DNA of 64,000 bases from Lophium mytilinum (Eukaryota), in the NCBI GenBank assembly GCA_010093605.1, contig MU004203.1, positions 86,156 to 150,155 on the forward strand, written 5' to 3'. Below the pieces are notes generated by a model. It searched no databases and was not told the origin of the DNA. It saw nothing but the letters and a program-made list of their open reading frames with translations. Position numbers and translations under genes: made by a program. Position 1 is the first letter of the stretch; each line of letters opens with the position of its first letter. Shown here one piece after another: positions 1,619-25,920 of the stretch.

Positions 1619-1627
1619 GGCTCGAAC
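1619..1627 (-). promoter_or_regulatory. Pol III B box downstream of U6 copy 1
   Basis: Minus strand GTTCGAGCC about 25 nt past the U6 T8 terminator; same motif and spacing as in copy 2. Confidence 0.7.
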
Positions 1628-1654
1628 GCCAGCTAGTGAAAGAAAAAGGGCAAA

Positions 1655-1805
1655 AAAAATTTTGAAGCTACTCTTTGATAAAGCGTGTCATCCTTAGTGC
1701 AGGGGCCATGCTAATCTGGAAGATGTTAGTTTTGAAGCTGAGTGTTGGGGGGTGGGGTGGTACACCTTCTCTGTGTTGTTTCAAATTGACCAAATGCCCG
1801 AAGGC
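1655..1805 (-). ncRNA. U6: U6 snRNA copy 1 with 50-nt spliceosomal intron (1765..1716)
   Basis: Minus strand GCCTTCGGGCATTTGGTCAATTTGAAACAACACAGAGAAG|gtgtac...actaac...ccag|ATTAGCATGGCCCCTGCACTAAGGATGACACGC...T8: 5' stem-loop, ACAGAGA box, AGC triad and ISL of U6. Confidence 0.93.
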
Positions 1806-1827
1806 GAAGTGCGTTAAATTTATACCA

Positions 1828-1835
1828 AATATATA
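1828..1835 (-). promoter_or_regulatory. TATA box of U6 copy 1
   Basis: TATATATT about 30 nt upstream of the U6 start. Confidence 0.7.
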
Positions 1836-3943
1836 GGCTCTATTGGCGAAATTGCTTTCACATGTGACCAGCCACCAGCCACCAGCAACTAGACTACTAC
1901 GCCACACCGTCAATGTCACAGTTTCTCCGTATGTTCATCGGCGCTAATGTCTACATTATCGCATACTTGTTGTTCCTCCATCTCACCCAGCTTTTGTTGT
2001 TTCACCTTCTCCCTAAAAATGTCCAGAACAACAATCTCCCTTGATTGAAACTCCCCCGCAAAAGTATTTACGCATCGCATCTCCGCGCACAAGTCGACAC
2101 ACATTGGTTGCCATGCTCAGTCAAGGCATGAAAGACAAGATGAAGAAGTGGAAGTTTAATGCCGATCTAATACCGATCTCTCCGCCTCTTCCGAGGCTGA
2201 TGAATAATGAAAGCGCAAAGGCACGGGGTAGTGGTTATGAACTATTCCAGGGAGAACCCCAAGGTCAACGTCGAACCTCCATCGGATCCTTTGTACGTAG
2301 CTCTCAACAACGACACGACACTAACAAGACGGAACGAGTATGAAGTAAGATCACCCACAAGCCAAAGGCGAATGAAAAACGCGAGCACGAGAGCCCATCA
2401 GGAAGCCATCAGTAATTCGCCAGAGCAGTACAATGACTACGCGATGCGGCTAGACAGGGCAAGAGAAGAGATCACCGTGGAACCTGAGCAGTCCTAGACG
2501 TAACACAGAATGTGGTCCTTGATCCTGGCGGCATCCACTCGCGCCACTACGCAGACGGCGTAATCATCGTTGGAAAGAGAAAGCTCACAGGTCTTAGAAA
2601 GGGTGTTATACATGCAGGGAGAAGTTTTCACTTGTGTTGACTCCAAAACCTAGGGCGAAGGTCTCTATGGCTGGTTGCATATACACCTTTCTGGACCTCG
2701 ACAAAATATGATCCCAAAGCGAGTTTGCTTCATTGCATTTCGTCGCAAGGGACACTACTTCTCCTTCGTGATCCGGGCCGGAACTCTGTTCCAAACATGA
2801 ACAGTTCTAGCAATGAGGGTAGTCACGTTGCACCAGGTCGTTGCCTATAGAGGGCCTAAACAGATCAATCGTGAGGGACAAGCTTGGTGATAAAAGATTG
2901 GAGCGATACAGGGGGCCAAGACGATTAGAACGAGGACGATGAGCTCTGGGGATTCGAGACTGCGCGATTTTGGTTCTCCTTCTGTCTACTTGTTCGGTAA
3001 GATTTGTAATGGGTTAATCTATAGGCATATCGGGGGGCGAGCAAACCGCTGATGCCGAGACAAGCTGAGCAATCGACCAGTTTGTAGCAATCTACCTAGT
3101 TTTCCTTTCCAAGACAGAAGTATATATACCACATCTTTTACCGCTCGTTATCGTGATGTAAACCGAGAACCTTCGTCACTATTAATGCATACTTACCAGC
3201 CTGAAGCCTTTCATGCTTCCCTTCCTGTTTTACTGAAGTGCACGGTGTACCCTTTCTTTCCACCAGAGTATTAATAATGTAGTTCAAGCGCACTCATACT
3301 TCTGTATATCCATTCAGTGTTATTCCACAAACCTTAGCAAGGAGCAATTGACCCTGAAAAGGCGAACCGGAAACTGGGTCGTTTTCGAACTGACAGAACA
3401 ACTGTTATATTCTAACATTTTGTCCCCGTTGGGACTTCAATATCCTCAAATTGATATTGAAACATGATCCGCCCACAGTTATACTATATTCATGCTCAAA
3501 AGAACAAGTACAAAGTTCCTAGATCCATTACCTAGATACGCGCACGTGACGCGCCGGTTGAAAGTCACGTCTTCTACACGCCTGACCCGGCCGGCGACCT
3601 CGCCTTAAGCGCTTCTGAAAACCATTCACCATGAAAAGCCCGTCGGCGCTAGCACGCGCCATACATCTGCTGCCCTATTTAGTACCCACCGACCGTGATC
3701 TTCTCCTCGAGTCTCACCACCTTGCTCACACCCAATTTGACCACACCATAGCTTCGCACATTCCGTTCGCATTGGAGACGCCTTGGTTGAGCTTCAAAGT
3801 ATCCTCATTTATGATTAGATTATCAGTTTCCTTTGCTTTGGAATCTCCTCCAACATCCCATCCGCCGCCTCCTTCAATATCAACTCCAATCCAAACATTC
3901 CTTCGCGCGTCCTCTCCTCAATACCAATCACTTAATCTCCACA

Positions 3944-6900
3944 ATGCGGAACTGTCTCCGAGAGAACCCCAAGAAGCGCCAACTTCAAGGCAGCCTGCCC
4001 AATTCACTCAAGCCAGCGGTCGATATAGAAGCGCCAGCGACGTCTTCCGAAAATATGACCGTACCGACCGAGAGGACCACTGGACGCGCAAAAAAAGCCG
4101 CCGCGAGACAAGAGCCGCCAATACCGCTACTCAATATAGTGCCACTCGCCAACATCTTAGCTAGAGCAGCGGCAGAAGATTCTGCTCCGCTGCCTCTACA
4201 GGTCGGCACAGGAGGAGGCAGCTGTGGAGGAAGCAATTTGCGCGGCGAAGGCATGACGGCCCATGAGATCCGTCAGATGAAAAACGCGCGCCTCTTGAAT
4301 CAAAAGAACCACGCCGTACTACCCAGACTGCTTAGCCTTGGAGAGCAACAGGCACTGGCGAGGTACAATGCAAAAGATGAGGATGAGGCCGAAGATAATG
4401 TAGCGACATTGGAGCGCCAGCGAGAAGCGCGACTTGTAAGTAACTCCATCCTGTGCTGATTTGAAGGCGATGTTGACAATACTAAGGCCCTTGACCCTCT
4501 CAAGCCCCGTGCGACTCCTACCCCCTCATTTCGTCCGGGACAAAACGATACAGCCTACATAAGCAGTATCTATAGAGAACTCATTTTTGGGGAGAGACGC
4601 GTGCAGGATGACTTAGCTGTGGCTTCTAAGTCAGCTATCCCTGACTTTGGTGGATCCTCGTCCAGTACCCCAAAAGTCGCCAACAGTGCCATTCCCACTA
4701 CCGATCAAGACCAAGAACTTCCTCGCGAGAACGAACTCCCAGATCCCGAGGATGTCCTATCAGCCGCGGAGAGAATAGAGCGAAACGAACACTACACTCC
4801 GTGCGGTCGACTCGGCGATGAAGATGGATCCCTTGGTTGGAACTTCGAGCGCGACTGGACTATTGGCAACTACCTCGAGGACGCCTCGTTCATCTCGTAC
4901 ACGTTCGTCAATCTTCTTCATCAAGACGGGAAGCCTGCCAGACCTGCGAGGCCAACACCAGCCTCAGCCCACCCCACTGACACTGGAAACATCTTCGACC
5001 CGACCCTTATACCTGTAATCAACGTCGGTCATGTCGATCCAAGCTTTTACGGAGATGGAATCGTTGTTGATTCCAAGGGGATCATAATGGGTTGCTGGAA
5101 GTGGGAGGAATCTGGGGAGGATCTCTACGTCTGGTGTGACGACTGCAAGTCCAAGGGGGTGCATGATCATTGGTACCAACCGCGGTGTTATTACACCTGT
5201 CCTCATTTCAACGAGCTTGAGGATGCCACCAAAGAGCGCGAGCGTTTCAGGATGGTTTCTCGCCATCACGGTCTCCAAATGCCCTTCGGGTGCAAGATGT
5301 CCAAAGATGTCGCGCGGAGGTTTGGGGTGATCTATGATCATGCCAAAGCTGTCAATGCCAGCAAGAAAGGCAAGATGGCGATGACAAAGATAGATCTTCA
5401 GACACAAGCTCTCGCCCCTCTACGAAAGTATGGGAATCAACCAGTCCCGTATCAAGCCACCGGGTCCGGTTCTACGCAAGAACCCCAGATGGAGGACATC
5501 TTTGTAAAGGTACCGAAGGACCTGAACACCCTCATGCGTACCGACCTTGTTGAGGAGCAAAGAGTCAACTTCGACTATCTTCTCGAGAGCATCAAACATT
5601 TGCAGAAGCTCCTGGTGCCCATTGAGGAGGCTCTGAATGATATGCCTATTCAAGATCGGCCAAAATTCAGAATGCCTCCACATCTGGGTCATCGCAGCTC
5701 GTCTGTTCCGATGATTGGACTGCGTCGGCTCTTCACAAAAGTAACTGGAGACAGTATCTGGGCTGAGCTGTATGCTCGTCCCCACGTGGCAGTTCCCACG
5801 CTCGTCGAGCTTTTGCGGGAAAAGCTAGCAAGCGTGCAGCAGAAGAAGGCGGAGCGAAAGGGGGAGTGGCACATTGCAGAGCGTCAGCTCCGAGAGCTGA
5901 TGAACAAGTGGCGCGAGTATCACAACCGCCAGCTCGCGGCTTCGTTGGCCGCGATTGGCGAGAGTGGTGCGTCGACTAACGACAATGTGCTCGCCATTGA
6001 GGACCCTTCCGATCAGGCCGTGGAGAGTCAGGATATAGGTGCTATTAATACCGTTGCCACGAATGACGGGAACGAAGTAGAAGAAGTTGACACACCCGCC
6101 ATCGAAGGGACAGCAAAGGAGCTCGACGAAGAGGCTACCGAGCTACCTACCAGGTTCGAAAATACCAGTGGGCCGGGAGAACCCCATGACATGGAAGTAG
6201 ATACTGTGGGTACTGGAACCACACCAACAGGCATTAGCCTTGAACCACAACCTATATTCAACTTCGCCAGAGACACAAAGAAGAGCAGGGGGCTCTTGGC
6301 TTCAAGAGTCACCGTGGCGACCGCAGGGTCTGGCATGAAGTCCAGCAAAACCAGCACCGGAAAGACTGCGAATAGCAAGGTCCTTGGCAACCATGTGGTG
6401 AAACAAAAGCTAGCTCCTTCTAGGATGGGCCTCCGGAGTCTAGCAAAAGCTGCACATGCTGCTACAGTCGAGGACCGCAACGCAGTGGGAGAAAATGTCA
6501 GTGAACCCGCCGCTTCTGAAGAAGAAACTGGCGCAGCAGCTGTCACTCTAGCTGAGTCGGAAGACGCGGTTGGTACTGAAACCGACCGTGATGATCGCCC
6601 AGATACTGACACGGGGTCTGCGCGACCTACCCTTATTGTGGTTCTCAAGATAGGCCACAGTACCGTAGCTCAGCAGCTTCTGAGATTGGCCACGGACAGC
6701 GCCGTCAACGTGGACAGCCCAAGGATCGAGGGCCGAGTTCTTCGCAAGAGGAAGAGACACCCGCTCGACGAGGGAGAGGACAATGAGTCTAGCATAAACT
6801 CGGAAAGCATTCACGGAGGTCATGCTAACGATGGCGTCAACGCCCTCTCCGAAAACGGTGGCCAAGGGTCAACAGGAGTGAAGGTTAATGCTTTCAAAGA

Positions 6901-7984
6901 GAAGGCGCCGCCTCGAAAGAAAGCAAAAACCAGTGCTCAGTCAGCTGGGCCGGCTCCGGGCATGGTCAATCCGGTACTTGCTCAGCAAGGCACTACACAA
7001 AATGCGTCAGAAGTCCCCAGGGACAACGCACAGCTGGATATGAACGAAGAAGGCGATACCGCCGAAGACGACAAGGAATGGGAGATTATCACCCCCGGTG
7101 AGGGCAGGTACAAAATCAACGAAGAACGCTCCATGACTCTCCAGCGGCGTCACAAGATTTCTGGAACCGTGCAGTCCATCACCTACACCCATGCCGATGA
7201 CGTAGACTGGGCTTTGAACATGTGGATCACGCGACTGAACGCCTGGCGGCGTCAGTGCATTCGCCGCTTTGGCGGTGAGCACGTAGCGGGTTACGACCGA
7301 CAGAAGTGGTCCAAGGAGGACATCGCTTGGGTCAGGGATGCCATCGCCAAGCAGTTTGATAGGCGAGAGAAGGCAGGGGAGAACGTGAAGAAGAGTCCTC
7401 CTTGGGCCGAGATTTACATGGCATTCGTGGTAGCCCATCCTGGGACTCATCGCACCCAGAGGGCTCTGTCGTGCATGGCTATGCGGCAGATTATGCCGGA
7501 GCTGGTGCTAGCTAAGAAGAACAAGCATGAGGGGGAGGGACAGGCGGATACCGCTGAGGGAGACATAGATTCTGATGAGGGTGAGAGTGACGACGCGGAA
7601 GACGAGGCGGAGGTGGGAGACATCGCGCCGAACAACAATGCCAGGACAACCCCTTTCGTCGCCGTGCGTCGAGAGGGCGATCGAGTGAAGCTCCGCCTTA
7701 CGGGCTTGAGGTCGCTCGCGAACTCTGACAAAGTCGAACGTAGAAACGGAGAACGTTCCTCCAGTCGTGTTCAAATGCAGCTCATTGTAGCAAATGCCAG
7801 GAATGGACCTGTTGGCGGTAAGAAGCGCAAGATCGCAAATCGCGATGATGAGTATATCTCTCCCGCGCGGTCGTCAAAGAGAATAAAGACGGCATCCGCT
7901 AAGGCTGATGACGACGAAGTGATGGAAGATGGTGGAGTCGGAGCGAATGCACACGAGAACGAAGAGGTCGAAGAAGAATTGTAG
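3944..7984 (+). CDS. Family member 1 (about 1329 aa; exons 3944-4435, 4487-7984): novel Cys domain + Sin3-HID-like segment + Myb/SANT-like domain
   Basis: ORFs 3833..4459 and 4601..7984 join in frame across a GTAAGT..AAG intron (4436-4486). Motifs GDGIVVDSKGIIMGCWK, CDDC..CYYTC, EEQRVNFDYLLES..PHVAVPTLVELLREK and DW..RLNAWRRQ..WSKED..W..RTQRAL are shared with the paralogues. Confidence 0.85.
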
Positions 7985-8508
7985 GGCCATATCTTAAGGC
8001 GTGTGACGATATTATCTCTTCAGGTGCAGCAACAAAATCTTAGATATCCTGTGCTGGCGTATAGAGAGCGATGGGTAGAAGTCCTGTCAATTTCTAGCAT
8101 AGTCAGATATCATCACAGTTTCAATATCATCACAGTTTCAATATCATCACTCGCAACCTATGCTTTGCTGTCCACGTTTGGATTGGTTTGTGAAGATGCC
8201 GAGTTTGACAGCATGCTTCTCTGCATAATGGAACTTTGAAAGATGTGAAGCTTCTGAAGGTAGATGTCAACATCGGTTCTCTGAATTAAAAGCAGTACTG
8301 TTCATAGTGTAAAGGTTCCCAAATTCTTGTGAGCACGTCTGAGTACTTCGCGGGACTTCATACAGCGTCACGCAAGTAGCAGAGATAGCGGTACTGATGG
8401 AAGAGACACAACACTTGCATTAACTTTTAACTCGCTGCCTTCCTTTTCCTAGTGGGTCTCGCCCGGGGCAATCAAGGAACTTCATGTTGAGCCTGTGCTC
8501 CAGAACCT

Positions 8509-8880
8509 TCACCCAGCAGATGCGCTTCTCCTTCGTCTTCGCCTCACTGCCTTCCTTCTCTCGAAGGATCCTTCGGTGACGACCATGTCTCCCTGTTGGA
8601 GCTCAAGTCCGGTGAGCGGAGGGCCATCAAGCTCCCGAAGGATAGCTTGTTTACGTTCTGATGACAAGACGATCCCCCCGTCCTCAGAGCTGGGGGACTC
8701 GTGCTCAGGGTAGGTGAGCGGTGGACCATCAAGCGCCCGAAGTATGGCTTGTTTGCGTTCCGTTGACAACACGATTTCCTCGTCCTCTGGGGTGGGAGAC
8801 TCGTTCTCTGGGTAAAGCTGCCGACCTATAGCTCGAACCTCTTCCATTGACGGGAACAGGTGCTCATCTGGTGCTTGCAA
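8509..8880 (-). CDS. Hypothetical 123-aa ORF with internal 34-aa (102-bp) duplication
   Basis: YPENESPTPEDEEIVLSTERKQAILRALDGPPLT / YPEHESPSSEDGGIVLSSERKQAILRELDGPPLT; the true start is uncertain. Confidence 0.35.
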   Translation of the reverse strand: MQAPDEHLFPSMEEVRAIGRQLYPENESPTPEDEEIVLSTERKQAILRALDGPPLTYPEHESPSSEDGGIVLSSERKQAILRELDGPPLTGLELQQGDMVVTEGSFERRKAVRRRRRRSASAG

Positions 8881-9291
8881 TATCGGGGTGTTCGGGTCCG
8901 GAAGCTGAGGGTTCAGGCCAGCTGCTACCTTAGATTGTTAGCATCTCTGCTACGTAATCGTATACTATTGCTCCAATCTGCCGTGCCGCTGGCTGACACC
9001 GACGACAGATGTCGTGAGTCAGGAGCCACGAATGTCGGAGGGGAGGAGCATGATCAAGAACACACATACCTTCCATTGTCCCAAGCACTCCACAAAAGAA
9101 ACGTACATCACACACTGCACCAACATGTTCTGGTCCCCTCAGATTGAGAAGTCCGCCCAGAAAAGCGGTATCCTCGGGCAAGATATCCTGCTCGACGACC
9201 TCTGTCCAGAGAACTTCGGCCTGAGAGCACCGGCTTGCTCGAGCGAGGCAAGATGTCTTCCCCTCACCGCCAACCAGCGAGAGACCGACTT

Positions 9292-9595
9292 CGGAGTGCG
9301 GAGAGTCCAGAAAGCAATAGGACGGCCGCCAAACTGGGTGAAGCAGCTCTCGAGCTCGGACTGGGTGGTGTCGTGGGGCAGCCTCTTCACTTGCAAAACT
9401 TTGCCTCGCTCTAAGTGAAAAGCGCGGATATCACTCCGAGTGTCCATTGGCTTGGTAAGCATGTCTGGAACTGAAGTGGAAAAAGCTTCCGTGGGAACAG
9501 CAGTTGGATGGTCCTGTGGCGGCTGGAACTTGCAGATCAAACCTCGGCGAACTCTGGCAAGAATGAGAGCTTCCTCCATGGCACGTCGCGGTGAG
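9292..9595 (-). pseudogene. NRP1: Fragment of Nrp1/ARP-type RRM + RanBP2-zinc-finger RNA-binding protein
   Basis: SPRRAMEEALILARV..PMDTRSDIRAF..KVL..LPHDTTQSELESCFTQFGGRPIAFWTLRTP matches the fungal Nrp1 region before and into the RRM; similarity stops abruptly. Confidence 0.8.
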
Positions 9596-10893: not shown

Positions 10894-11558
10894 GAAGGAT
10901 GAAGTCTACCTCAAGGCTCGTGCTGGACTTCGTCCCCGAGGCCGTCTACCGCGCCTCCCGGTACTTCAACAAAAGGAAGACTGTAATGCGCCATCCTCGA
11001 GTCAAACTCTATATCTGCGCGCTCTTTCGCTCCCTCACGTACATACACTCACAAGTGTCTGCCCCGGAACGGTCTACTGCGCCTCCCGATGACTTTGTTT
11101 CAACAAGCTGAAGACTGTATGGCGATCCGCGAAGTCAAGCTCTATGTCTACCAGTTGTTCCGTTCCCTCGCGTACATACACTCACAAGTGTGTNNNNNNN
11201 NNNTTCAACAAGCTGAAGACTGTATGGCGATCCGCGAAGTCAAGCTCTATGTCTACCAGTTGTTCCGTTCCCTCGCGTACATACACTCACAAGTGTGTGC
11301 CCTCGACCGTTTACCGCGCCTCCCGAAGATCTTGTTCAACAAGCTGAAGACTGTATGGCGATCCGCGAAGTCAAGCTCTATATCTACCGGTTGTTCCGCT
11401 CCCTCGCGTACATACACTCACATGTGTGCGGCCCCGAAACCGTCTACCGCGCCTCCCGCGGATCGTTCGTCAACAAGCTGAAGACTGTATGTGGATTCTC
11501 GAAGTCAAGCTCTATGTCCACCAGCTGTTCCGCTCCCTCGTGTACATACACTCACATG
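10894..11558 (+). pseudogene. GSK3: GSK-3 kinase exon fragment amplified in tandem (about 130-bp unit, 4-5 visible copies)
   Basis: [30 protein letters not shown](V/I)YQLFRSLAYIHSQ matches GSK-3 subdomains V-VIa; frameshifted, with no HRDIKPQN catalytic loop. Confidence 0.88.
11194..11203. other. Assembly gap (10 N)
   Basis: Run of n inside the GSK-3 repeat. Confidence 1.
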
Positions 11559-13848
11559 TCCTGGTGGCTTGGAGGAGGGATGGGGTGAGGAGGACGGTTT
11601 GGGTTTTTCTTTTGGATAGTGTTTCGGTTTGGAATAATGGAAAAGGTCTGAGGACCGTTGTTTCTCTGCGCAAGATCATTGCACAGTGCATATGTGGTGA
11701 TTTATAATGAGGTCGTGATACATTGTTGCCGCTGTTTGAAGCGCGTTGATCGCAGTTTGGATCATCTTGAGCTGATGCTTCATTTACTAACGCTGAATCA
11801 GAGCGAAGTATCTAGGATAGGCATTCATACAGGAGCTTTAGCTTGGCTAACTTCAGGTAATGGTATTCGTCGATCACGATTAGTAGTCAGGTTTGAGTTT
11901 GGCGTGAGCGACGAGCCATGGTTGACGTATGGACCGGTCCAACCTAGTATCAACCTCAAGCAAACTGCAACTCGGATAGGGGGAGCGATAAGATTGATAT
12001 GGTTTTCTTTCCTGTATCACCCAAGGCTTAATCATACAACTGTTTCTACGACCCCAAAAGACCGGGACTCGCCAGCCAACTTCGTGATCACCCCGCGAGC
12101 GAATTTCCAATCAACCAAGATCATGATCATCTAGTAATTTAAAACAGGGATAACTGAAGAGCTAACTGTCTCGTCCCCTCTGCCTCGTCCTTTGTCGCTC
12201 GTTTTCTGAACAGCATCCTCATGTACTCCACTCGATCCCACGTCCGCTCCAATCCGCCATCGGCGACCAACACCACTGCGGTAGTTTCCTTACCTTGGTC
12301 GAAACTGTGGATATATACGCAGAAAGGATAGTCGTATCTTCGGACTGCGAAGAGCCTATGAATAGTCCGCGATAGTGGACGAGGTGCCGCTTGGGAAGCA
12401 GCGGAGGCCACCTGAGATGAATTCTCGAACAGACCATCGAGTCAACGCGGTTGAGGTCTGGATGTTGCATCGTCGCAAGCGACGCGTTGAGAAGGTGGGT
12501 AGGTTGGTTAATATACTCGGATGGATGGCAGGGAGCTCACAAGGTACGCTGTCGCTGTTCGAACCGAATCAGCCCTCCTGTTCACCAGACAGTTTTTCCT
12601 TTGCTGAGCGCGATGCCTAGGCTAGTATGCCTGCGTCGTGGTGTTTCCATGACTTTACCGACGACACTGCTCTAACGAACCCTCTCAATCCCTTCTTTAT
12701 GAGCTTCGAGATTACTTAGGTGTTGCCGGAGAACTACAAATCTCAACTTATCGTCGAATTGAGGAGGATAATCGCTGAGTTAGCCTCCATCCATGCCCCT
12801 GGAAAAGATATCTTTGACATGCACCGTACGTAATCGCGCCGACCCCCGACAAGAAGTCTTTCCTCGACTCCCATTACGTGCTCAGCACTACCGGTCCCAT
12901 CATAGTGCGGTGAGGTAGACAGAAATGTGGTTGGAAAAAGGACAAGAAAGAAAGAAGAAAGTAAAAGGATAGTACGCCTGACACATCTCTCGTTAGCTTT
13001 AATTAATCTACCGACGTTGCTTCCTATTGACAAATGCGGTCTCTAAAGGAGCCCTACACATTGATTAGATAGAACAGATGGGCTGAGACTGCCCCCGCAG
13101 ATTGAGAGACGCTCTAGAAAAGCTGAAGCAGAAATGGAGTTTGACGGTACCCAGTGGCAAGTGCGCGATGTTAGTCTTCTATCATAACCTCGACTCATAT
13201 CTAAATAAAGACACTTTCGAAAGCCATGGGAATTAAACGGGTGTGGAGAAGTAGATTGACCCGCCAATTTTTCTACCACAGTCCCAGCTTCCCAACCCTG
13301 GCAAGTCTCAACACACCTGTCCAACATTCCAGTTTTAACCGCCGTCGTCCGACATGACATAGTAGAAATACCGTAAATAGTTGCCTTAGTCATGGCTATC
13401 AGCTGCAAAAGGCTTCACAGGAGGGAAGGTACAGTCCAGTGAGAAGAATAACAGGGAATTGGTATGTTGTTGTGTTGAACGTCGAATTAGCAACGGGGGG
13501 AACTTCTAGCCAGTGCGAGATATTAGTGCGACTTATTCGCTATGCCTGATTCAAGCTTCAATAGTATCTTTATGCTATTGTCATTCTGTATCATGATCAA
13601 TTGCCGTCATCTTGTTGTAAATTGTTACCATTCCTCCGCATCTCCATCACTCGTCCAGGTAATTAGGCAATGGAGGCCTCGCTCAATGCCAGTCGGCATG
13701 TCAGCCGCTTTGCTTTCCCAAACCCCCGATTTTCCGAGCTCTCCCCCACTCGGTGGATCCCCTCTCGCAACATTGGATCATGTCTTATTAGATGAGGGCA
13801 GGGATCAGCGCTTGTGGAGATGGTATCAATGAGGTGTGATTTGCATAC

Positions 13849-14070
13849 CCAGTTGTTCCATCCAACAGCGAATCCCATGGCCGGGTCGACGTAACGAGAG
13901 CAGTACTGAGGAACGGCGCCAGGGAGGGGGGGCCAGGTGGCCATCTCGCAGAGACAATGCATCATGGCGCATACGGCGAGACCAGTGATGGTATATCCAC
14001 ATATACAGTCCGCAAACCTCGTAGATAGAGCGAGTACTCTCGGCTATGTCCCGATGACGCTTCCGATGCG
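13849..14070 (-). pseudogene. Amino-acid permease (YAT family, proline-permease-like) N-terminal fragment
   Basis: IGSVIGT*..GYTITGLAVCAMMHCLCEMATWPPLPGAVPQYCSRYVDPAMGFAVGWNNW followed by a GTATGC donor; has a stop and is truncated. Confidence 0.8.
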
Positions 14071-16444
14071 TCTCGTACTGGCTTATGCTTGCGGCACATT
14101 GGTAAGATCGGCGTCATGAAAGCCCATCAGCTCTTTTCCGCCCCTTTGCGCCAATGCCGCTATAATTATCCTACTGCAAGCGCAGAGCACTCGGGTTTAC
14201 TCTCCACCGGTAACGAGATTTATGTCTCTCGCTCAATCTTGGTGACTTCATTCGTGGTCGCAGCAAGAATTGTCGGGTATGGATCGATTCAATGGCGGCG
14301 GAAGAGTTGCCTGGTAACCGGGCTCGCAAGGAGCCTGATTGGGATTCGGGAAGTAGTCGGGATCAATGAGGCTGACACCGGAAGAGAGACCGTCGTTGGT
14401 GGAATCTAAGGCAAGACAGGAGGATGGAGAGAGCAAAGAGGTATCTTCCGGTGCCGGCATTGGCTCAAGTAGTGCTCGAAATAGGTGACGGTCGCTGCGG
14501 AACTATAGTTTGTTTCCTGTGTTATCCGTGAGCGAGGAGCACTCGGCCACACCTCGCTGTATGCTGAGCACTTACGGAAATGAAATCTGAGCTGTGGTTA
14601 CGGCGGGTATCACCGAGCGTGAGGCCTAAAGGAGGACCGAATTATAAAGGAAGGCTACGGTGCAGGTATGTTCTGTCGCCGGCGGCGGGAAGGCAAGGAT
14701 TACGACGTTCCGTGGTGTTGAGTTGGGGTGCGAGGGCAGCGGAGAAATCTGTTGTTGATTGAGTCGGATGGACGCAGTCGGTGTGGAGAGCATACCAGTT
14801 TCCAGTATGCACCCCCGCAACCGCGCTCGCTGAAGCTTCACTCCTCCCACAACACCCTTTGGCCACAGCCATTCATTTCCCTGGCTTCAACATTGGTCAT
14901 TTACTCCATAAAAGGGAAGATCTTACTGCTTCTTGCCCCTCTCTGCCCCCACGGCGTGCTCAACAACCGAGACTACTCCAACCAAGCCAGACGGTTGGGC
15001 CACCGGGTCTTCACTCGCTACCTTACCTGCCTCACCCAGCTCACTTATCACCACCACCGACAGCTAGTAGTTGCTCACTCCTCCTTCGCATACGAAGCGT
15101 GCCAAACGCCGGTCTTCTCGTCCTTTTTCGATAGCGCAACGACTCCCAACACTCACTGAACCCCGAGTCAGCCTCCTCCGAGAGACTCTTATAGCCGGGA
15201 ACCCAAGACTTGACGACCTCATTTCCTCTCGGCCATACGGTGGAATATATCTGGCGAAGTACGGGACCTCGACTGATGTTCATACACGCTTTGAGATTTT
15301 GGAGCGGCAGAATGAGGCTTTTGAGAAGCCGGCAAGAAATTCCAGGAACGATATGGAGGAGTGAAGGCCTACGGCAAGGAATGTAAGCAAAGCCCATATC
15401 GTATGCAGCAGGAGTTGGAATGTTTTCTGAATATGGGCAGGTGCCTTTTACCTTGATTTATTTTCTGACATAAGGAAATAGGTCCTGCAACAAATCGACA
15501 ACCTCCTACCCCTGAACCCACACCCCTTTAGTTAAGTTGCGATGCGACCCTATAAATGAAGACATTCCATGGGGCTGATTCATCAGCTACGGTGGCATTA
15601 GCATTCTTCTTGCTTCAAGGGGTACTTTTGGCGGATGAACGGCGAAGATTCCGCCGTACGCACACCACACATGTTACTGAAGAGCAGACGAGGAGTTGAG
15701 AATTTAGGGGGAAAGGAGAAACGTAGAAGAAGGAAAGGCTACATACGAGAGGTACTGGGTCCCTGCCCTTGGTAGCCCTCACCACTCCTCTTTAGCAACA
15801 CTCTAGCACTTACGTAACTCGAGGCACAGCACCGGGCCAGGGACTTCACGAGCTATGGTCCTCCCTTTTTGAAAGCAGCAACAACCTGGAGGCAGAGTAG
15901 GGCTACTCCTAGGTCGCCAAGGATGTTCTTGAATATGTTTCGATATCAAGAGTACTCATTTCCACATGAACAGCGACTTCCCCACCGCCTCAGATCAGAA
16001 CTCGAAGCTTCATTGCATCAATCATGCCGGCCCTGACCAAAGTTCTCAGTATAGCCTTCGTCGCTACTGCTCAACCGGGCCGATATAGGCTCCAAGAAGT
16101 ACCGTTCTCGCCATTTATCAACTCCTTGACCCACCATTGGCGGGAACAGTCACTTCACTACCACGGTCTTTCACAGCGCCGTCCAATTGTCCAGACGTAC
16201 AAGGGAAAGACAAGTGAAAAGAAACGATGGGGAGGGTAAGCTGGATAGGAAGTTTGTGGAAGGGCCGTCATTGAATGAGGAGGAGGTCATTCTGGGCGAC
16301 ATTTTTATAGTCAAATTAGTTTCCATTAGGCAATGAAAATTTCAAGAACCTCAAAACGTTCAACGCTACTATCATGACTTGTTCTAACACGGTGTATACA
16401 GTGTGAAGTTTCTGCGATGTTAATAAAGCGTACTGGCCTTCAGG

Positions 16445-16865
16445 CCATAGCGCGTGCTTGCTTTTTCATGGCCCATATCTCCTCGAACAATTTCCTCAAA
16501 CTTGCTCCAACCTGTTTCTCCTCCGTCACCCGCACCGCGCTCTACTTTAGCTCTTGCGTGACTACCAACAAATTCTCATCTTAATGATGAGTGCATAGAC
16601 CGTGGCACGTGCTTGCTTCTTCGTCGCCCACAAGTCCTCGAACAACTTCCGAAACCTTGCTCCGACCTTCCTCCTCTCCTTCACCAGCCTCTTATAAGAG
16701 AGGCTTCCAACTCTTCCGCCTCCATCTCTCCTACACTCCACAAATCATCACGCCAAGCGTCTGAAAACAGTTCGCCTGCTCCGTAGCAGGTCGATGCTCC
16801 GAGCCGGACTATAAGACAGGCCTCCGTCTTCCTTCCTCCATCGCTCCTACACTCCACAAATCAGG
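16445..16865. repeat. Two pairs of local diverged duplications (about 85 bp at 16445/16600; about 55 bp at 16692/16809)
   Basis: cgtgcttgctt..tcctcgaacaa..cttgctcc occurs twice; tataaga.aggc..ctcctacactccacaaatca occurs twice. Confidence 0.7.
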
Positions 16866-17144
16866 TAAAAGCCGTTCTGCTCAGGCTCTTGCACAACTAG
16901 TAGAGCAATTTATCGTCGACGTTGGGTGGTCGTCACGTGTCCGCTTCCTCTGGTTCGTTCCACGGCTCACTGACCGACTTTTCGAACCTTACTTCAACCT
17001 CGCCTTCTTCCTTCGCCACCCCACCCTCTTTCTTCACCACCTCGACCTCTTCCTTTCACGACCGCCTCACGTACCCAGCTTCTTGTCAGTGCTTCCCTTT
17101 CGATCGCCTTGTGGTTGGCCGCCGTCTCTTGGCCGCCGCTCTCG

Positions 17145-17590
17145 CGAAACCTGCGAAACCATGTCCAAACTGTTCATCATGTATGCATCCCACATCTCAG
17201 AAACACAAATTGCGAGCTGACATCATCATAGCAGACTTGCCTGCGGCACCGACGATGCCACCCTCCGCACCAGACTGCAAATTGCTCTGGCAATGAGCGA
17301 AACCCACGAAACCATGTTCAAAATGTCCGCTGGGTACGTACAACTCATCCTTATTTCACCATTGTGCTTATTCTGACGCCTTCAAAGCGACCTTGCCAGG
17401 TCCACCGACGATGCCATCTACTTCGTCAGACTGACAATTACTCGGAACGCCGTGGGAAAGCCCCGAAACCATGTCCAAGCTTGGGGGTTCGTACAGCAAC
17501 TTTCCCTCTCCACATTGGATCTACGCTAACACCATCACCACAGCCTTGCCTGGAACGCCGACGTTGCCACCCTCCGCACCAAGATGGACC
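17145..17590 (+). repeat. 3 x about 155-bp exon-intron-like repeat encoding a Cys/His motif
   Basis: cgaaaccatgt at about 17155, 17307 and 17464, each followed by a GT..CTRAC..AG intron-like stretch and cttgcc..ccgacg.tgcca. Confidence 0.65.
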
Positions 17591-20450
17591 AGACAGATCT
17601 TGGTTTGGTTGATGGGTCCCAGCGAGCTGCAGAAGAAGCTCAAGGCGGTTGCCAGTTCAGGCCTCGACTTTGAATACGGCGACTTCGGTCAGAAGAAGAA
17701 GGGCGCATTCGATGTTTTCCAAGATCAGGAGGTGACCTTCGCACGCAGTGGTGGGAGTTTGTGTTGGGATGGGAGAGTTGGGGTGACGATTTCGGGGGTA
17801 TATCCCTGGGGGGCTTCAACCCAGCGGCCAAGAGCCCAAAGCTGCAGAAAAGCGTATACAATTAATGAAAGGACATAGGAAATGTCAGTTCACCCTAGTA
17901 AATTAAGCTACCTTCTCTCTTAAGTCCCAATACCGCTTCAACTTCCGCAACATTAATTCCAATGCACTTGCTTAGCTGAAGTGAAAAGCTGTTAAATAAC
18001 AAGCGGCCGTGACGGTGATAATAAGCTGAAGAATTTGCCTATGGAAGTTATGGCTACAGCGAGACTATAGGGCGGACGGAGGTTTCCCACCGCCGAACCT
18101 TACCACTTCAACGTCACTCACCAAGGCAGCAACTCCTTCCTCTCTCTCCACCCCACTCACCTCAACAACACCATCCTGTCAAGCTCCAGCATGACCGCCC
18201 ACTGAGCGCAAGTTCTAGTCTTCTCGCCTTACCAACTCTCACAACTAACACAGAACAGGATGGCTCAGCTGCGCCCTCCAAATCGCTCTCCACAGCGCCT
18301 CACTGGCACCCTTCTAACTGAGTACCTTTCCCTCACCGAGCCCGCCAGATGCAAGAAGTCTGTCTGAGGCGGCCCCGTCAGCGATTCAGTCAAGTCGCGT
18401 GCTGGGGGAAATTTTTTGAGGAGGCTACCAAGGCACGTTGGGAGGCCGGGCGGAAAAGGCGGCTACGGCCAGTCTCGACACCTCAGCGGGTAAATGGTCC
18501 ATTGGCTGTTCTCGGGCTTGGAATGGGCTTTTGCGGAGGCTACGGAGGCAGAGAAGACTTGCGCTTTCCGGGCGGAGAGGGTGGCTACGGACAATGGGAT
18601 CAGGATGGCGGGTAGATGGTCCATTGACTGGAGTCGGGCCTTAGTGGACTTGACTCAACAGTCTCGTATGATGTGAGTGCAGCTCTCCCGGGGTTCTTGG
18701 TCCTTACAACTAATGCACAATAGAGAAGCAAGACTGCGATCTCTCGTAGCCTATTCAAACTTTCTAATACACCCCCCACCTGGCACAATGTTCAAACCTC
18801 GATATCTCAACGACGATGATACCACAAGGCTGTTCGCCGATGGATGTGTGTCCAGTAATCGACCTTCAAGACACTGGACTTCACCTAGTATACTTCCCGC
18901 CCTACAATAACCTATATACCGTGAACGGGGTCTTCTGTGTGGAATGAGACGGCTCGGCACGAAGACGTTACCGCCCGATATACAGTATCGTTGGACATTG
19001 CATCACTCACTGCTGCTTCGGACCAGAAAAGTGTCTGAGCGGAACTTGCTTGACAACCGAGCTGGACTGGCTGGACGTATGACGCGCGACAAAGTCTTCT
19101 TCGAGCACGAAAGATCGTAGCCGGCTCACTGACATCAATACCACCTAGAGCCTTCTTCCTCACCATCCCTATCATTCCAGCCCCCCGAGTCTTAGTCCTT
19201 GGCCTTTCTTACAACGCCATGGAACTCGCGCGAGTCGAGTTAGCATCGTCGACACCATGTTGACAGCATCAGACACAGTTGGGCACGAGCTCTTATACCG
19301 GACCTCTTCGGGAATGTCTCGAGCTGAACCGTCTCTACAATAGTAGATTGCCTTCGTCGCTGCCACGCCCAGGGAAAGCCGCATCTGTGGGATGATGACC
19401 CGTGGTATACGACGTAAGAACGAGGCTCCTCTTTCCCATGATTTACAAAACTGATGTTTCGGAAAACAGCAGTACTCGTTACCATGCCTGTCTGGGAACT
19501 TCAAGCTTCGCGAGACTCTGCTTCAGCCGCGCCCGACCCTGAAGATCACGAAGTCCCATCCCGCCCTCATGCCGTCAGAATTGGCTAACATCGACCTCCG
19601 TTCGCAACAGGCCATCAAAGGGAAGGCTTCTTGGTGAAGCCCCTCTGAATTCGAGCGAGCATCCGCAGCTGTTCGAGGACGGGGCCGATGTGGACAGCCG
19701 TTCGAATGAATCAGAGCGCAGGCTCAAACTGCCAGCTTCATATTTGACGATACAAGACTCACCAAGGCGTCGTCGAACACGCCAGTACGCTCTTGTGACA
19801 GGCCTGCGGTACCAAATGCTCGTACTCGGCACCGCACCTCAGCTCAGGCTTCCGGCCTCCTACAGCCCTTGGGGGGCCGCTGGAGACCTATCCTCATCAA
19901 AGCCGAGCCTTCTCGGCGAGCCCCCTCTGGACTCCAGTGGGCTTCCATGACACTTGGAAGATGACAACGACGTCAACAGCAATTCGAACGAGTCGGAGGG
20001 CGACGTCGAGTTATCAGCTTCATATTGGGCAAAACCAGACACAACTGCCGAGCTCGACTGCGCTCTTGCGTCAAGCTGCAGAGCAAAACGGGCGCGCTCG
20101 ACACCGCGCTTCAGCCACATGCTCGCCGCCGTCCTACAATCGCCACAAGACCGCTGGCCCCACTCGAGGCCTATCCTTGACCGAGTTCCTCTCCGCCATG
20201 GAGGAAATGGAAGTCTTGATGGAATACCTCTCTGCCTAGAGACGCTACAGCGGGCATGTGGTTGATCTCGGCGCCGGCCTTGACTGCATCTGCCAAGGAA
20301 CAAGGAGCTAGAGGCCATGTACGTGGTCTATTGGATGGTGATAATGTAGGCGAGAAAGAGGGCTAGCGGAGGTTATATACTTGAGGTGACGTGCGCCTGC
20401 TGTAGCCCTCACCGCTACTCCCTGGCAGCATCTCAACGGATACTGGCAAC

Positions 20451-20858
20451 ATGGACAGTCCGAAGAAGCCCCACTAAACCACCTCGCTCAATTTCGACGA
20501 TCCCTTTGACTCACATTCGAGACGCCACAGCCGACTGCTGATTGCATCTCTAGTGCCCTCTGGGACTGTGAGGTCCCGCACGGTGAAGACCGAGCCGCCT
20601 GTGCCTAGAGCTCCCTCGGGATACCTCAAGGCGCCGAAAAGGGAGAACGACATCGATCAGATTTCATCCGGCCTTCAGCGCGTCAGGTTGAGAATGCCTA
20701 CAAAGAAGCAGCACGATGCAAAGAGAAGCAAGAGAAGAGTGAGAGATCGAAGGCCAGAAATGAGGCACCGGGAATCATGGACAGTCCGAAAAAGCGCCAC
20801 TGGATCACCTCGCTCATTTTCATCGATCCCTTCAACTCATATTCAAGACGCTACAGCC
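20451..20858 (+). repeat. 82-bp direct repeats (20451-20532, 20777-20858) flanking a coding-like insert
   Basis: atggacagtccgaa..cacctcgctca..cgatccctt..agacgc.acagcc occurs twice, 326 bp apart. Confidence 0.75.
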
Positions 20859-22203
20859 CGTTCGGAAACCGCTGGTGCCGCTCGTGATATTTCCTTCTAG
20901 ATCAAGACCACGTCCGCTAGCAAAAGAACGGACAACTAGGCAGAAGAACTGCTTGGATATAGTGAACGATGCACCGAGCATAATGTTGGTCCTGTTACAA
21001 GCGGACCAGCGCTCTTCGCCAAAGTGAGAGAGAACGGGTACTCTAGTGAGAAGGAATCGTCGCGTTTCCGCCCGGCGGAGGCAAGTGTTAGATGGTCCAT
21101 TGATCACTGACGCGAGTTCACCCATCCCTATTGGTCATTCCGGAGAGAATATAGAAGGCCATTTGCTCACGGGCGAACTCCAATACTTGAGAGTGGAGAG
21201 CGGGCCTTAGATTGACACCTCTATTTCAAGGGTTGTGGGTATTGGAATGGGACTGTGTTGGACCAGATGAGGCCTGTAGTTGTTGCCAATTGCTAGAACG
21301 TTTTACCTACGAATAGAAAGTTTCTGAGGTTCATTGCCGTTCGTGTCGGAGTTACACCAACCCAGGGCCTTTGTTAATGTAACTACGGAAGTACAAGTAG
21401 AACCCGAGACAAGCGGGAGCAACTGTTCTGTAGTTTTCTTTTTGGCGGGACCTGTTCGGACCTTCAGTCTTCAAATAACAAGTCTGCAACTCTTCCATTC
21501 CGCAGAATTTTTCAGGATGGAAATCTTGTGATGTACGGTACTCCGTTGTCTTGAAGAGCCATGGAGCCAGGGTGCACTTGAGTTCGAGGAGCATCTCGTT
21601 AACGGAATCAATCTTGGGATTCATACAGTCGGACCAATCAAACGCCGCTCATTTTCCCTCGGTCATCGAACACACAAACGCACCGCTCGCTAGTGAATTG
21701 AAAACAGGACTGCGAGCTTCCGCGACTGAGTCCCACGTGAGCCTTGCCTTCGCCAAGTTGCTATCTCAGCACAAGCAGGCCTGTACCCGACCAACAACCC
21801 GTTCGGAAGGCGCCTTCACTTTTCTGATTCCACCAAAACACAAGACACCAACATCATTTCACCGGATGTTCGTGCCTTCTTCACTGATTGCGGTCCCCCA
21901 TCAACTCACCTTAGTACTTCACTAGCCATCGAGGTCGACCGCTCAAACTCAACCTTCGAAACACGACTCATCTGCCAAAGCCCTTGAATCTCCTCTTGAG
22001 ATGAGATGCGAAGTCGAGAGATTTCCTGCAGCAAAGTGATCATCAAGGGCTTCTTCACCAAGGTGAAAGCCGAGCTGCTCCCTAGTGAGGCCTTAGTGCC
22101 ATCTTCCAATCTACTCCCACGACAGCAATTCTTCGAAAAACCCCCAAGGATAGACAGTCCGTCTCTGCCTGTCACCGGACACAGTAACCATAGAGAGTGG
22201 TCG

Positions 22204-22368
22204 GACGACGTGGTTTTCGTCGCTATGTACATCAAGCACGCATCCTGGGCTACCGGGAAAGCGCAGAATGCAGTCATCGAAGTTGGAATATCAACGCTGG
22301 ACATGCGCCACATCCGCGAAATCCACCCGAGCGTCTCCGGAGTTGCTTGGATCAGGAATATACGGACA
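22204..22368 (+). pseudogene. QIP/Gfd2(YDR514C)-like DEDDh exonuclease fragment with catalytic DxE lost
   Basis: DDVVFVAMYIK..VIEVGISTLDMRHIREIHP..G.AWIRNIR resembles the family motif DVVFVCxDxE..ITEIGIATLDTRD..P...G..W...I. Confidence 0.65.
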
Positions 22369-25300
22369 ACGCTCGACCTTTTTCTTCTTGGTTGCACTCT
22401 GGCTGCCCATCACCGCCAAATCCATCCACGTGAGGCAGTACCGCCGCACCGCCACCCCAAACCGTCTGCCGATTTCTTCGACACCACAAACCCGGAGGGT
22501 GAGTGACCACGTCACGCGGAGATTGGTGCGGCAGTCAACAAGTCGTGCAAACTGCAGGTGGCCATACCTGCAGCTTGTTACCCGGAACTCCTCTGTTGCG
22601 AGACGATGACGAGCAAGTTCTTTCCATTAGTCACTGCTTGAACCGCGAAAGACAACAACCCGTACGCTGCCACCAAAATCCGACAAGACCTGCGAGATGC
22701 TCAATAATATTACACTTCGACCTGCGACGCCTATGTTCGACTCGGGGAATCGTGTGTCTACGCCGACGACTACAACTCGAGCCGCGAAGTGAGGGAGGAA
22801 CCCTAGTTTGAGCCCACCGCGCAGGCAGCCATCGAGGCGAAGCATGAGGCAGATCTGAACGCCATGCTCAACTGCAAGCCTGACCCTGAAGAAAAAAAAC
22901 CTGTACATGACGACTATAGTCTGACAAGACCTGCGAGATGTTTAATATCATTACACTTCAACAACGGTAGACGAGACGACGACCAAGCACAAGTTGTTCT
23001 TGACGAGTCCGAGGAAGCTCCTAGGATTCTTCAAGGTAGCTTCAGACCGAGCACGGCCGAAGCACTGCCCGCCAATACTCCTCTGAAAGCATTAAGGCAT
23101 CTCGCATCCCCTCCTACGAATGAGAGGCTCTGTTCTAAGACGCTGGGGCAAGCAACGCCAAATCTTTTCTTCAAGAGACGTTCGATCAAGTCACAGTCCG
23201 AGAAAGACATGACAGAGTTATTCAAACCCCTTCCGATGAGATCGCGTTATCCCTTCCCGTCGCAGGACATGGCATCAAGATCGGGTTTGATCTCACCGGC
23301 GGCAATGGAAAGACCATCATGAAGCAGATAACCGATAAGGAGGAGGGCGACAGTATTCATATATTCTTGTCAACGGTCTGGGTCAAGAGCAAGTCAGTTG
23401 GTTCGTCGACTATCCCGCCGTGGAAGGTATCACCTTCCCAGCAGTGAGCACGTCGAGGCAGCCTTGATGCAAACTTTACGACACGACATCACGACAGCAC
23501 AGGGTACGGGTGACTGCCACGGAGTTTGGGACATTGATTTTGTGCGATAGGCACAGCGATATGCGGTGCACTTAGGAGACAGGGAAGTTTTGAGCACGGC
23601 CTGGGACTAATCAACGTGGCTTTTGTTGTCGTGTTCTCCAGATAAATTCTTTGTCTATCTAGAACTTTCAGTCCAATCTTGCGCAAGATGCCATCTCATG
23701 CTAGATACCCAATCATTTTTCCCTTTTGCGTAAACTGCTAAGCCACTATAACACCTGTGATGGGTGGCTGGCCGTAGAGAGTTTCCCGACTCCCAACCCA
23801 ACGGTGAGGCTGTTCAACCACACTCCATCACCTATCCTACACCCTAAGCCCGCTCTAAGCTCAAGTGAGTTGCGGCTTCTCTCCCGATAGCGATCAGGTG
23901 AAGCGGATGAGTGAGCTGAAGTGAAGCTCAACATGCGCAGCTCACCGAGGTGAGCGTTAGGACGCTCTGCCGCTCTGGCGTCTTGTCTATAGGCTCTTAT
24001 CCTGGATATTCCAGATTCTTGCAAGTACTATTAGCATGTCGACTTCTACCTCCCGCCCTGACCCAAGTAGGAGATACTTTGACCAGATGCTCGATACGGC
24101 ATATCATCCGGACACTTCCGCTATGTTCACCATAAATGATCATTCATCAAGCTTGAGGTCTAAGGCGTCCTCCACAGGGGAGGCTCCATTCACTTTGAAA
24201 AGCCATACATACCAAATCACTTCCTCAAGGCATCGATCAGGCCCGATCCTGAGTCTCCCGTCGGTTCCAGTCAAAGGAGGCTCTGGGCCAACCTTCGCGG
24301 CGTGTAGCCCTTCAGCAATCTCAGTTCTGGTCTGCGACAGAGACCTGCATTGTCCGCCTCCTCGGTTCCTTTAAGGGTCGCCTTGTTCTTGCTCCACTGG
24401 ACAAGGCAACCTCGTAAGGTACTCCTGCTGACTTTCTTCTTCCTATAGGTTGCTCATGATGCAAAATTACGCTGGAGGACTTCATAGCATTGTCGAGTAG
24501 GGGCCGGAGTGGTGGAGAGGTCCTTGATCGTTAGAGCGTTTTGAGAGCCGGCTTTCCAAAAGACAAACGGGTCAGAGGGACTCACTGTCTTGAGTCCGAT
24601 GATTACTGCGCTGTCGGTTTTGAAGATCAAGATAGCAAAAGCAAGGAAGCCATAGCTCACGGCATGGTGTACACTTGGAGATTTTGAATTTGACTACCTG
24701 CTCATTCACACTCTCGACAGTCCTTTCTCGCCAGGCATACTGCCAACCCCGATCCTTAGCCCGCTATATGCATGGTCTAGCGAATTGCATCTTTCCTTTC
24801 TTCGCTCGCCTAAGGGTATGGTGCCTTCATGCGATGGGTGCTGTTGCGATGCTTGTATCGTGATTCCATTTCTTCGTCATGGCAAAATCTCCGAGTGCCA
24901 GAACTGGGCACAAAGGACTGCGACGGCAATATGCTTCGCAGTTGTTAGAGCCTGGTTTGTCACTGTATACCTCCTATCTAGATGCCGTACGCACCAAGTT
25001 CATCGGCCTCGCCAGCAGGCAAGTTGCTGCGCGAGTTGGATGGTGAGGCCCGGGCCGATCTGGTGATGCGGGACAGTGAAGTGGCGCGACGGCGCCTAGA
25101 TTGCCGGATCTGAATCTCGTGTTTTTTTCTCGCGCATGGAAAGGTGGGTAGGATATAGGATCGATGTGGAGAAGTGAGGTGGAGGGATCGTTCGTCGCGG
25201 ACTCATTGAATGGAACTTGGGGATAGTGAAGGCGGCTGGATTGTTGCGCAAAACCTGCGGAAAAAGCGCGACTTGGCAATTTAGAGATGGGGGGTAGGAT

Positions 25301-25702
25301 AAGATACTCTGAACTTAGACACTCATGCTGGCTTCACTGCGAGTTGGCATCTGTCCCGACCGTCGTGATATAGCGTTGTGCGTGGCGCCAGAAATCGAGG
25401 GAACGGTGAAGAAGGTGAACAATTCCAACACGAGAGCGTGCTGCAAATGAAAGCAAGCAGAAGCTATGGAACTTTGGAAAAGAATCAAAAACGCAATGTT
25501 GGTGCCGTGAGCGTATGTGGATGAGGTGAAATGAACGTGCGACCTGATTCACGTTAAGGGAGCATCAGTCGAGGAGCCTACACAACTATTGCAGCATAAT
25601 CTACAGGCTGCATACCTTGAAAGGCGTGCCAGAGATGCGTGGCGGGGTGCGCGGCTAGTACAATAGTTCGTGGCGTGGCAGCAAACGCGCCCTGTCAAAG
25701 GG

Positions 25703-25710
25703 TATATATT
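25703..25710 (+). promoter_or_regulatory. TATA box of U6 copy 2
   Basis: TATATATT 29 nt upstream of the U6 start. Confidence 0.7.
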
Positions 25711-25731
25711 TACTATAAAATAAGACCCTCC

Positions 25732-25884
25732 GCCTTCGGGCATTTGGTCAATTTGAAACAACACAGAGAAGGTGTGTACCATTCCTCGTAACACTCAGCT
25801 TCAAAACTAATATCTGTCAGATTAGCATGGCCCCTGCACTAAGGATGACACGCTTTATCAAAGAGTAGCTTCAAATAATTTTTT
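25732..25884 (+). ncRNA. U6: U6 snRNA copy 2 with 49-nt spliceosomal intron (25772..25820)
   Basis: GCCTTCGGGC..ACACAGAGAAG|gtgtgt..actaat..tcag|ATTAGCATGGCCCCTGCACTAAGGATGACACGC..T8; exons nearly identical to copy 1. Confidence 0.94.
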
Positions 25885-25910
25885 TTAGCTTTTTTAATGT
25901 GCTTAGACCA

Positions 25911-25920
25911 GGTTCGAGCC
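25911..25920 (+). promoter_or_regulatory. Pol III B box downstream of U6 copy 2
   Basis: GGTTCGAGCC about 25 nt after the T8 terminator. Confidence 0.72.

Follow-up and report, generated by a model that had tools for sequence, protein, structure and literature searches.

The window, a stretch of 64,000 nt from Lophium mytilinum (GenBank assembly GCA_010093605.1, contig MU004203.1, positions 86,156 to 150,155), contains two U6 snRNA genes in opposite orientation (Table 1). Scanning with the Rfam U6 family (RF00026; gathering cut-off 44 bits) gave matches above the cut-off at 1656–1805 on the reverse strand (copy 1; 58.9 bits) and at 25732–25880 on the forward strand (copy 2; 56.7 bits), both spanning model positions 1–105 and carrying, directly 3′ of ACAGAGAAG, an insert whose length is 50 nt in copy 1 and 49 nt in copy 2. 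The ACAGAGA box, the AGC triad and the internal stem-loop were intact in both genes, and each insert had the GT donor, branch site and YAG acceptor of an intron. Removing it in silico left 94 nt identical to the intronless copies found elsewhere in the genome. The donor of copy 1 lacked G+5, which was kept in the other six U6 introns of the genome. In both genes the B box lay approximately 32 nt beyond the gene end. The sequence-only reading had described this layout (TATA box, A box, intron, T8 terminator and downstream B box), and both the Rfam match and the sequence confirmed it.

Table 1. Features of the two U6 genes and of the neighbouring protein family in the window (positions are those of the window).
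Feature	Position	Strand	Remarks
B box downstream of U6 copy 1	1619–1627	−	
T8 Pol III terminator of U6 copy 1	1652–1659	−	
U6 copy 1, exon 2	1660–1715	−	AGC triad, internal stem-loop, 3′ end
U6 copy 1, intron	1716–1765	−	50 nt, GT-AG; donor GTGTAC without G+5; branch site CTAAC at 1725–1729
U6 copy 1, exon 1	1766–1805	−	5′ stem-loop; A box at 1782–1792; variant bases before ACAGAGA
TATA box (−30) of U6 copy 1	1827–1835	−	
Orphan family gene A	3944–7984	+	Context only
TATA box (−29) of U6 copy 2	25703–25711	+	
U6 copy 2, exon 1	25732–25771	+	A box at 25745–25755; variant bases as in copy 1
U6 copy 2, intron	25772–25820	+	49 nt, GT-AG; donor GTGTGT; branch site CTAAT at 25807–25811
U6 copy 2, exon 2	25821–25878	+	
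T8 Pol III terminator of U6 copy 2	25879–25886	+	
B box downstream of U6 copy 2	25911–25920	+	
Orphan family gene B, main exon	26667–30563	−	Context only
Orphan family gene C	49483–55191	+	Context only; no U6 beside it

Comparison of the two copies showed 98% identity in the exons and 76% in the introns, while the upstream DNA from −40 to −300 (50%) was close to a shuffled control (47.5%). The flanks had therefore diverged, as claimed earlier; the introns had done so only by half, with 53% identity in their 5′ part and 90% over their last 31 nt. The difference between the exons and the far upstream DNA also supports the earlier suggestion that the exons are under selection, and gene conversion alone, without any special role, could keep them alike as well. 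No consistent structure emerged when the pre-U6 was folded. The conserved 3′ half of all seven U6 introns contains AGCTTCAAAA, a 10-nt copy of the 3′ end of U6 itself (in the window at 1730–1739 on the reverse and 25797–25806 on the forward strand; chance approximately 0.003), which could pair with exon 1 in a telestem-like manner. It was retained even in the copies L048 and L050, whose actual 3′ ends have changed. A second T run follows 23–32 nt past the B box in all non-core U6 genes (e.g., 25911–25940); a tRNA 3′ half is spaced likewise, and the end of the U6 unit may derive from a tRNA gene.

The genome-wide count proposed in the sequence-only reading, performed with RF00026 on 43.4 Mb in 49 contigs, yielded at least 21 U6 genes above the cut-off, mostly away from the protein family. 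They were distributed over seven contigs: eight on C4 (143–427 kb; seven of them spaced 14–52 kb apart), five on C1, three on C23, two on C19 and one each on C7, C16 and C24. One shared intron was present in 7 of the 21 copies, and the other 14 had none. A single copy, L044 (C1:1.76 Mb), looks like the core U6 gene: it has the usual sequence before the ACAGAGA box, an intron, no TATA box and a B box at 62 nt, and its neighbours are ordinary genes (SLS1, NT-C2, DUF2985 and MFS). A TATA box at −29 to −31 was found in 20/20 non-core copies and in 0/1 core-like copies, and 19/20 non-core copies had a B-box-like match within 45 nt past the gene. The window genes are not the core locus, a role for which L044, with its usual sequence and ordinary neighbours, is the better candidate.

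Beyond the cassette, defined here as the approximately 200 bp from TATA box to B box, no two U6 genes had sequence in common over 1.38 kb to each side. Because a mature U6 RNA carries neither of these boxes, the genes likely spread as DNA cassettes and not as copies of the mature RNA. Eight copies on C4 and C23 were identical over their first 94 nt, and one copy had an insertion of seven T, expected to terminate Pol III transcription. An inverted fragment of a U6 3′ half with its downstream flank (L106:9395–9449; G000:C1:1758395–1758449) was observed approximately 520 bp before the core copy. Within 120 nt upstream of 9/20 non-core genes (L031, L035, L037, L038, L039, L043, L047, L048 and L051; neither window copy), we noted the motif GCACTGACC, a possible regulator site.

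A tree built from the cassette flanks alone joined copy 1 to an intronless C7 copy (98/98) and placed copy 2 with C4 copies. Tests made without the long-branched L044, on a short alignment that includes the promoter boxes, rejected both a sister relationship of the window pair (p-AU 0.005) and a single clade of the intron-bearing island copies (p-AU 0.0007). The latter result implies that the intron was precisely lost, gained or converted more than once. Repeated exact loss would be compatible with conversion among copies or with spliced RNA having been reverse-transcribed, and hints that the intron is spliced.

Two base changes just 5′ of ACAGAGA, G29A and U31C relative to L044 (numbering of this gene), were common to 13 of the 21 U6 genes, including both window copies. 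Allele density was low in the 5′ stem-loop (0.09 per base) and the internal stem-loop (0.12 per base) and reached 1.4–1.6 per base 5′ of the box. The ACAGA sequence itself was kept in 16/21 copies and altered in five, in four of these at the first A; all five still have their TATA box, AGC triad and B box. A comparison of the best U6 of each of 240 species, which leaves paralogs outside, found ACAGA invariant (PMC10581693). The exact variant motif had no match in metagenome contigs or in viral contigs, and the intron-junction motif, looked for in a search for relatives, had none either.

The methyltransferase METTL16 requires the nonamer UACAGAGAA in U6 (PMC6162343, PMC7229813). In the window genes a C replaces the first U of this nonamer; U31C breaks it throughout the variant class, and only 3/21 U6 genes keep it. 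The genome has one gene of the METTL16 family. The variant U6 is therefore probably unmethylated at the ACAGA adenosine; we infer this loss of m6A from the motif, since no METTL16 assay of a single U-to-C change was found in the available parts of the two papers. The two variant bases also alter positions facing intron +7 and +9. The base adjoining the ACAGA box pairs with intron +7, and in yeast, U6 carrying U46C/A45U alters the choice of 5′ splice site by way of +7/+8 pairing (10.1101/2025.06.06.658024). In Schizosaccharomyces pombe, introns with A at +4 benefit from U6 m6A (PMC8163875).

The regions surrounding the non-core copies are poor in recognisable genes. Reading frames of at least 250 aa covered 5.6% of 240 kb on C4 vs. 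29.6% of 12 random control loci, and Pfam matched 3/110 ORFs (C4, 140–270 kb) vs. 26/62 in the controls, with ORF thresholds of 125 and 160 aa in this comparison; GC content was approximately 52%. We call these regions islands, a loose term as some U6 copies (L045) lie among ordinary genes. Their borders are not sharp, with Rav1, Uso1 and XRN genes between the U6 copies on C23. AT-rich blocks occur near the C23 copies; neither window copy adjoins an AT-rich border. At least 25 short matches link islands to one another, and none was shared between the window and the 12 random control loci. Degenerate tandem arrays (units of 100–165 bp, 65–90% alike), some units of which hold donor-, branch- and acceptor-like motifs, were observed in the window at 10931–11559, 39390–39695, 46534–49129 and 55278–61662.

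Predicted introns with strong signals were approximately three times as dense in islands (an excess of 1.13 per 10 kb) as in controls (an excess of 0.37 per 10 kb; z 2.8). The intron calls are motif-based and include false positives (20 in reversed sequence against 47 in islands, 13 against 22 in controls), and the control set includes C23 loci adjoining an island and loci around other snRNA genes. Positions +4, +7 and +9 of the predicted introns did not differ between island and control (67 vs. 25 sites, all p ≥ 0.19). The only nominal difference was T at +4, in 5/47 island vs. 7/22 control introns (p 0.043, uncorrected), which is opposite to the prediction from loss of m6A (PMC8163875). Donors with G+6, readable by four of the ACAGA-changed U6 copies, showed no excess (20 seen vs. 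20.4 expected), and no non-canonical donor class was enriched in 400 kb of island DNA, a comparison of low power. A sequencing run with the same label, whose RNA nature is a guess, gave no joints in 11000–30900, a span holding copy 2 only; three contigs of this run cover the U6 3′ half, one continuing into the flank of the C16 copy. Four window pieces (13849–13978, 17650–17744, 21074–21116 and 22206–22366) resembled contigs of run X1 at approximately 93–95%; these contigs then run into different sequence, one of them at very high depth. The pieces may be paralogs or captured gene fragments.

Other snRNA genes gather in the same regions. Genome-wide matches numbered 16 for U1 (all below cut-off), nine for U2, six for U4 and three for U5. 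Of these, four U1, five U2, four U4 and one U5 (14/34; p 7e-10) lay within 100 kb of a non-core U6, i.e., in 5.3% of the genome, and 10/34 lay within 50 kb (p 1e-7), both distances having been picked after inspection of the data. Rfam scans of the fetched island DNA gave one tRNA and no 5S rRNA above cut-off; intron-split tRNAs could escape such scans. The four island U1 genes were the weakest U1 matches; judged by eye, the 5′ end was altered in three of them, the fourth depending on the acceptor used, and ACTTACC was kept in 11/12 non-island U1 genes. The Sm site and 3′ box are kept in the island U1 genes (L102–L105; C1:86264, 190161, 531761 and C4:216399), and L104 shows by eye paired changes in stem I. 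The island U5 (L080; G000:C4:82780–82886) has a U6-like Pol III layout with a TATA-like box, T6 and a downstream B box; its loop 1 is intact and the surrounding stem diverged. Among the island U2 genes L057, L058, L059 and L060 (C23:72338 and C4:224873, 462786 and 273682, respectively), three carry an additional intron downstream of the region that pairs with the branch point; L060 has lost this region.

At one position of U4/U6 stem I, all four island U4 genes have G, against A in both other U4 genes. Island U4 is the only partner there for three U6 copies with a U-to-C change, and with it two of these copies form 8/8 Watson-Crick pairs in stem I; with three U6 copies and four U4 genes, these matched changes represent few independent events. 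Over the whole U4/U6 duplex, energies gave no consistent preference for island U4. The window U6 genes are predicted to form duplexes of −25.8 to −29.0 kcal/mol with 6/6 U4 genes, mismatch-free in stem I for 5/6. No second Prp8 accompanies these RNAs, the genome having one Prp8 locus, and among 13 Sm/Lsm matches, one of them within a U6-rich span, no second set was apparent.

The minor (U12-type) spliceosome uses a second U4/U6 pair, U4atac/U6atac, with matched changes. In contrast, the variant U6 is two bases off the core U6, scores as RF00026 and has no distinct intron class that we could find; neither an excess of other donors (400 kb of island DNA, low power) nor dedicated proteins (one Prp8, 13 Sm/Lsm matches without a second set) pointed to a comparable system. 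The dispersed 5S rRNA genes of filamentous ascomycetes are likewise short Pol III genes that occur in several sequence types and in unrelated flanking DNA; the U6 copies, by comparison, are concentrated in limited spans of seven contigs, together with other snRNA genes. Fungal U6 introns and up to 20 U6 copies per genome are in print (PMC5855946, citing Canzler et al., 2016). The genes described here resemble such multicopy or intron-bearing U6, including that of S. pombe, in the GT-AG intron near ACAGA, in TATA box, A box and downstream B box, in having copies with and without intron, and in a copy number at the top of the reported range (at least 21 vs. up to 20). They differ in the fixed variant class (13/21), the five changed ACAGA boxes and the clustering with variant U1, U2, U4 and U5; the survey itself may mention variants. 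The S. pombe B box lies in the intron and not downstream. With S. cerevisiae SNR6 they share the TATA box, internal A block and a B block beyond the terminator (PMC5855946); SNR6 is single-copy, and the non-core B boxes here lie only 10–45 nt past the gene. Developmental snRNA isoforms of Drosophila and vertebrates are also paralogs with small fixed differences (PMC4291461), concerning animal U1, U2, U4 and U5 of shown expression, whereas the present set is fungal and most expanded in U6. Multicopy and intron-bearing fungal U6 genes are known; our literature searches turned up neither the variant class nor the U4 fit nor the clustering, with the Canzler 2016 survey covered only through a paper citing it.

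Three members of an orphan protein family lie in the window. The middle region of their proteins (4460–7984, 26667–30563 and 49483–55191) matches a gene on C5, where the family has its only other, weak matches; Pfam gave no match, and a C-terminal Myb-like stretch was seen by eye, perhaps also in the ORF at 40587–41570. The only homologue found for gene B was a protein 97% identical to it and labelled Lophium mytilinum. In-frame stops preceding the long frames of genes A and B were considered as editing sites and rejected, the TGA and TAG codons falling inside likely introns. Within gene C, a stretch of 325 nt (52114–52437) has 87% identity to a further snRNA-rich region at C1:188 kb (L141). 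Copy 1 lies approximately 2.1 kb from gene A, back to back with its start, and copy 2 approximately 0.8 kb from gene B, tail to tail. The geometries thus differ, and gene C has no U6 beside it. The suggestion that U6 was co-duplicated as cargo of the family genes would account for this proximity at genes A and B; it is scarcely credible given that C5 carries no U6, that the 19 other U6 copies lie outside the window, away from the family, and that the window pair are not sisters (p-AU 0.005), their nearest copies being on C7 and C4. A general linkage of family and U6 is likewise rejected, unless many undetected family members adjoin the other copies.

Two further explanations concern the islands as such. 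The non-core genes could be kept for an effect on chromatin, as TFIIIC/Pol III barriers or organisers placed at intervals through the islands, with the RNA secondary, as the B boxes in 19/20 copies, the 14–52 kb spacing of seven C4 copies and the AT-rich blocks near the C23 copies might suggest. Such a function needs the boxes only and not an invariant U6 body, a branch site and complementarity to U4; U1, U2 and U4 genes, of Pol II type and without B boxes, cluster in the same regions, which hold one tRNA and no 5S, and the window copies are away from AT-rich borders. Both this proposal and that of U6 as an insertion target, raised in the sequence-only reading, leave the kept RNA sequence, branch site and U4 pairing and the gathering of the other snRNA genes unexplained, and we consider a barrier role quite improbable. 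Still more improbable is that the islands represent giant mobile elements of Starship-like or viral nature, which carry snRNA genes or insert at U6. Short stretches are indeed shared across islands (at least 25 matches vs. none between the window and 12 random controls), but Rav1, Uso1 and XRN genes are interleaved, the U6 neighbourhoods share no sequence, and the variant motif lacks matches in viral contigs; a search for a DUF3435 captain was blank, a weak result as the control was also silent.

The strongest rival, which we nevertheless regard as somewhat unlikely, is plain birth-and-death: cassettes would accumulate in regions that tolerate duplication, many serving as ordinary U6 for dosage and held alike by conversion, the two bases would be neutral and inherited from a founder, and the most strongly changed copies would be in decay. 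So short a cassette probably escapes RIP. The ordinary-looking island donors agree with this account, as do the 3′-half fragment beside the core copy, the copy with a 7-T insertion, the island U1 genes being the weakest matches, and the up to 20 U6 genes reported per fungal genome (PMC5855946, section 5, citing Canzler 2016). It leaves unexplained, however, the U4/U6 fit in stem I, the promoter split (TATA box in 20/20 vs. 0/1), the gathering of spliceosomal RNAs and not of tRNA or 5S genes, and the TATA box, B box and AGC triad still kept in the five ACAGA-changed copies.

On balance, given the directly observed gene anatomy, copy number, variant class, co-clustering and mixing of intron-bearing and intronless copies on the tree, we think it probable, if far from assured, that the window genes belong to a selected variant U6 class within a wider snRNA expansion, providing a retuned and conditionally used supply of snRNA. 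The variant would have spread as cassettes of approximately 200 bp through orphan-rich regions with extra U1, U2, U4 and U5 genes. It would be transcribed by Pol III from the TATA box, A box and downstream B box, and its intron removed by the spliceosome; the RNA would then pair with U4, best with the island type, and with U2, and work with the ordinary protein set including the one Prp8. It probably lacks m6A at the ACAGA adenosine and probably weighs 5′ splice sites slightly differently. The most likely use would be as extra, retuned snRNAs, expressed under a particular condition or at a particular stage at which the intron-rich transcripts of the islands are produced. Against a retuned role count the ordinary island donors, the copy 1 donor without G+5 and the lack of a second Prp8.

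A bolder version, which we put forward as speculative and rather unlikely, is that variant U1, U2, U4, U5 and U6 make up a second, co-adapted snRNA set of the major spliceosome, clustered in orphan, intron-rich regions. Its main U6 would escape METTL16 by sequence, and the rarer copies would rewrite the ACAGA box, together with the U1 5′ end; 5′ splice-site choice would then be switched in a stage-specific manner by the snRNA genes themselves, around one protein scaffold. A review describes it as poorly understood whether divergent U6 paralogs differ functionally or in their modification (PMC5855946, section 5). The genome of L. mytilinum would offer a natural test, with one core U6 set against 13 two-base variants at the METTL16 motif and the +7-facing position, plus matched U4, and with U6 copies that can be distinguished by sequence, copy 2 by its 3′ end and copy 1 only in precursor form. 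If a selected, retuned variant class is the right explanation, it would represent splice-site tuning through snRNA gene switching in a fungus.
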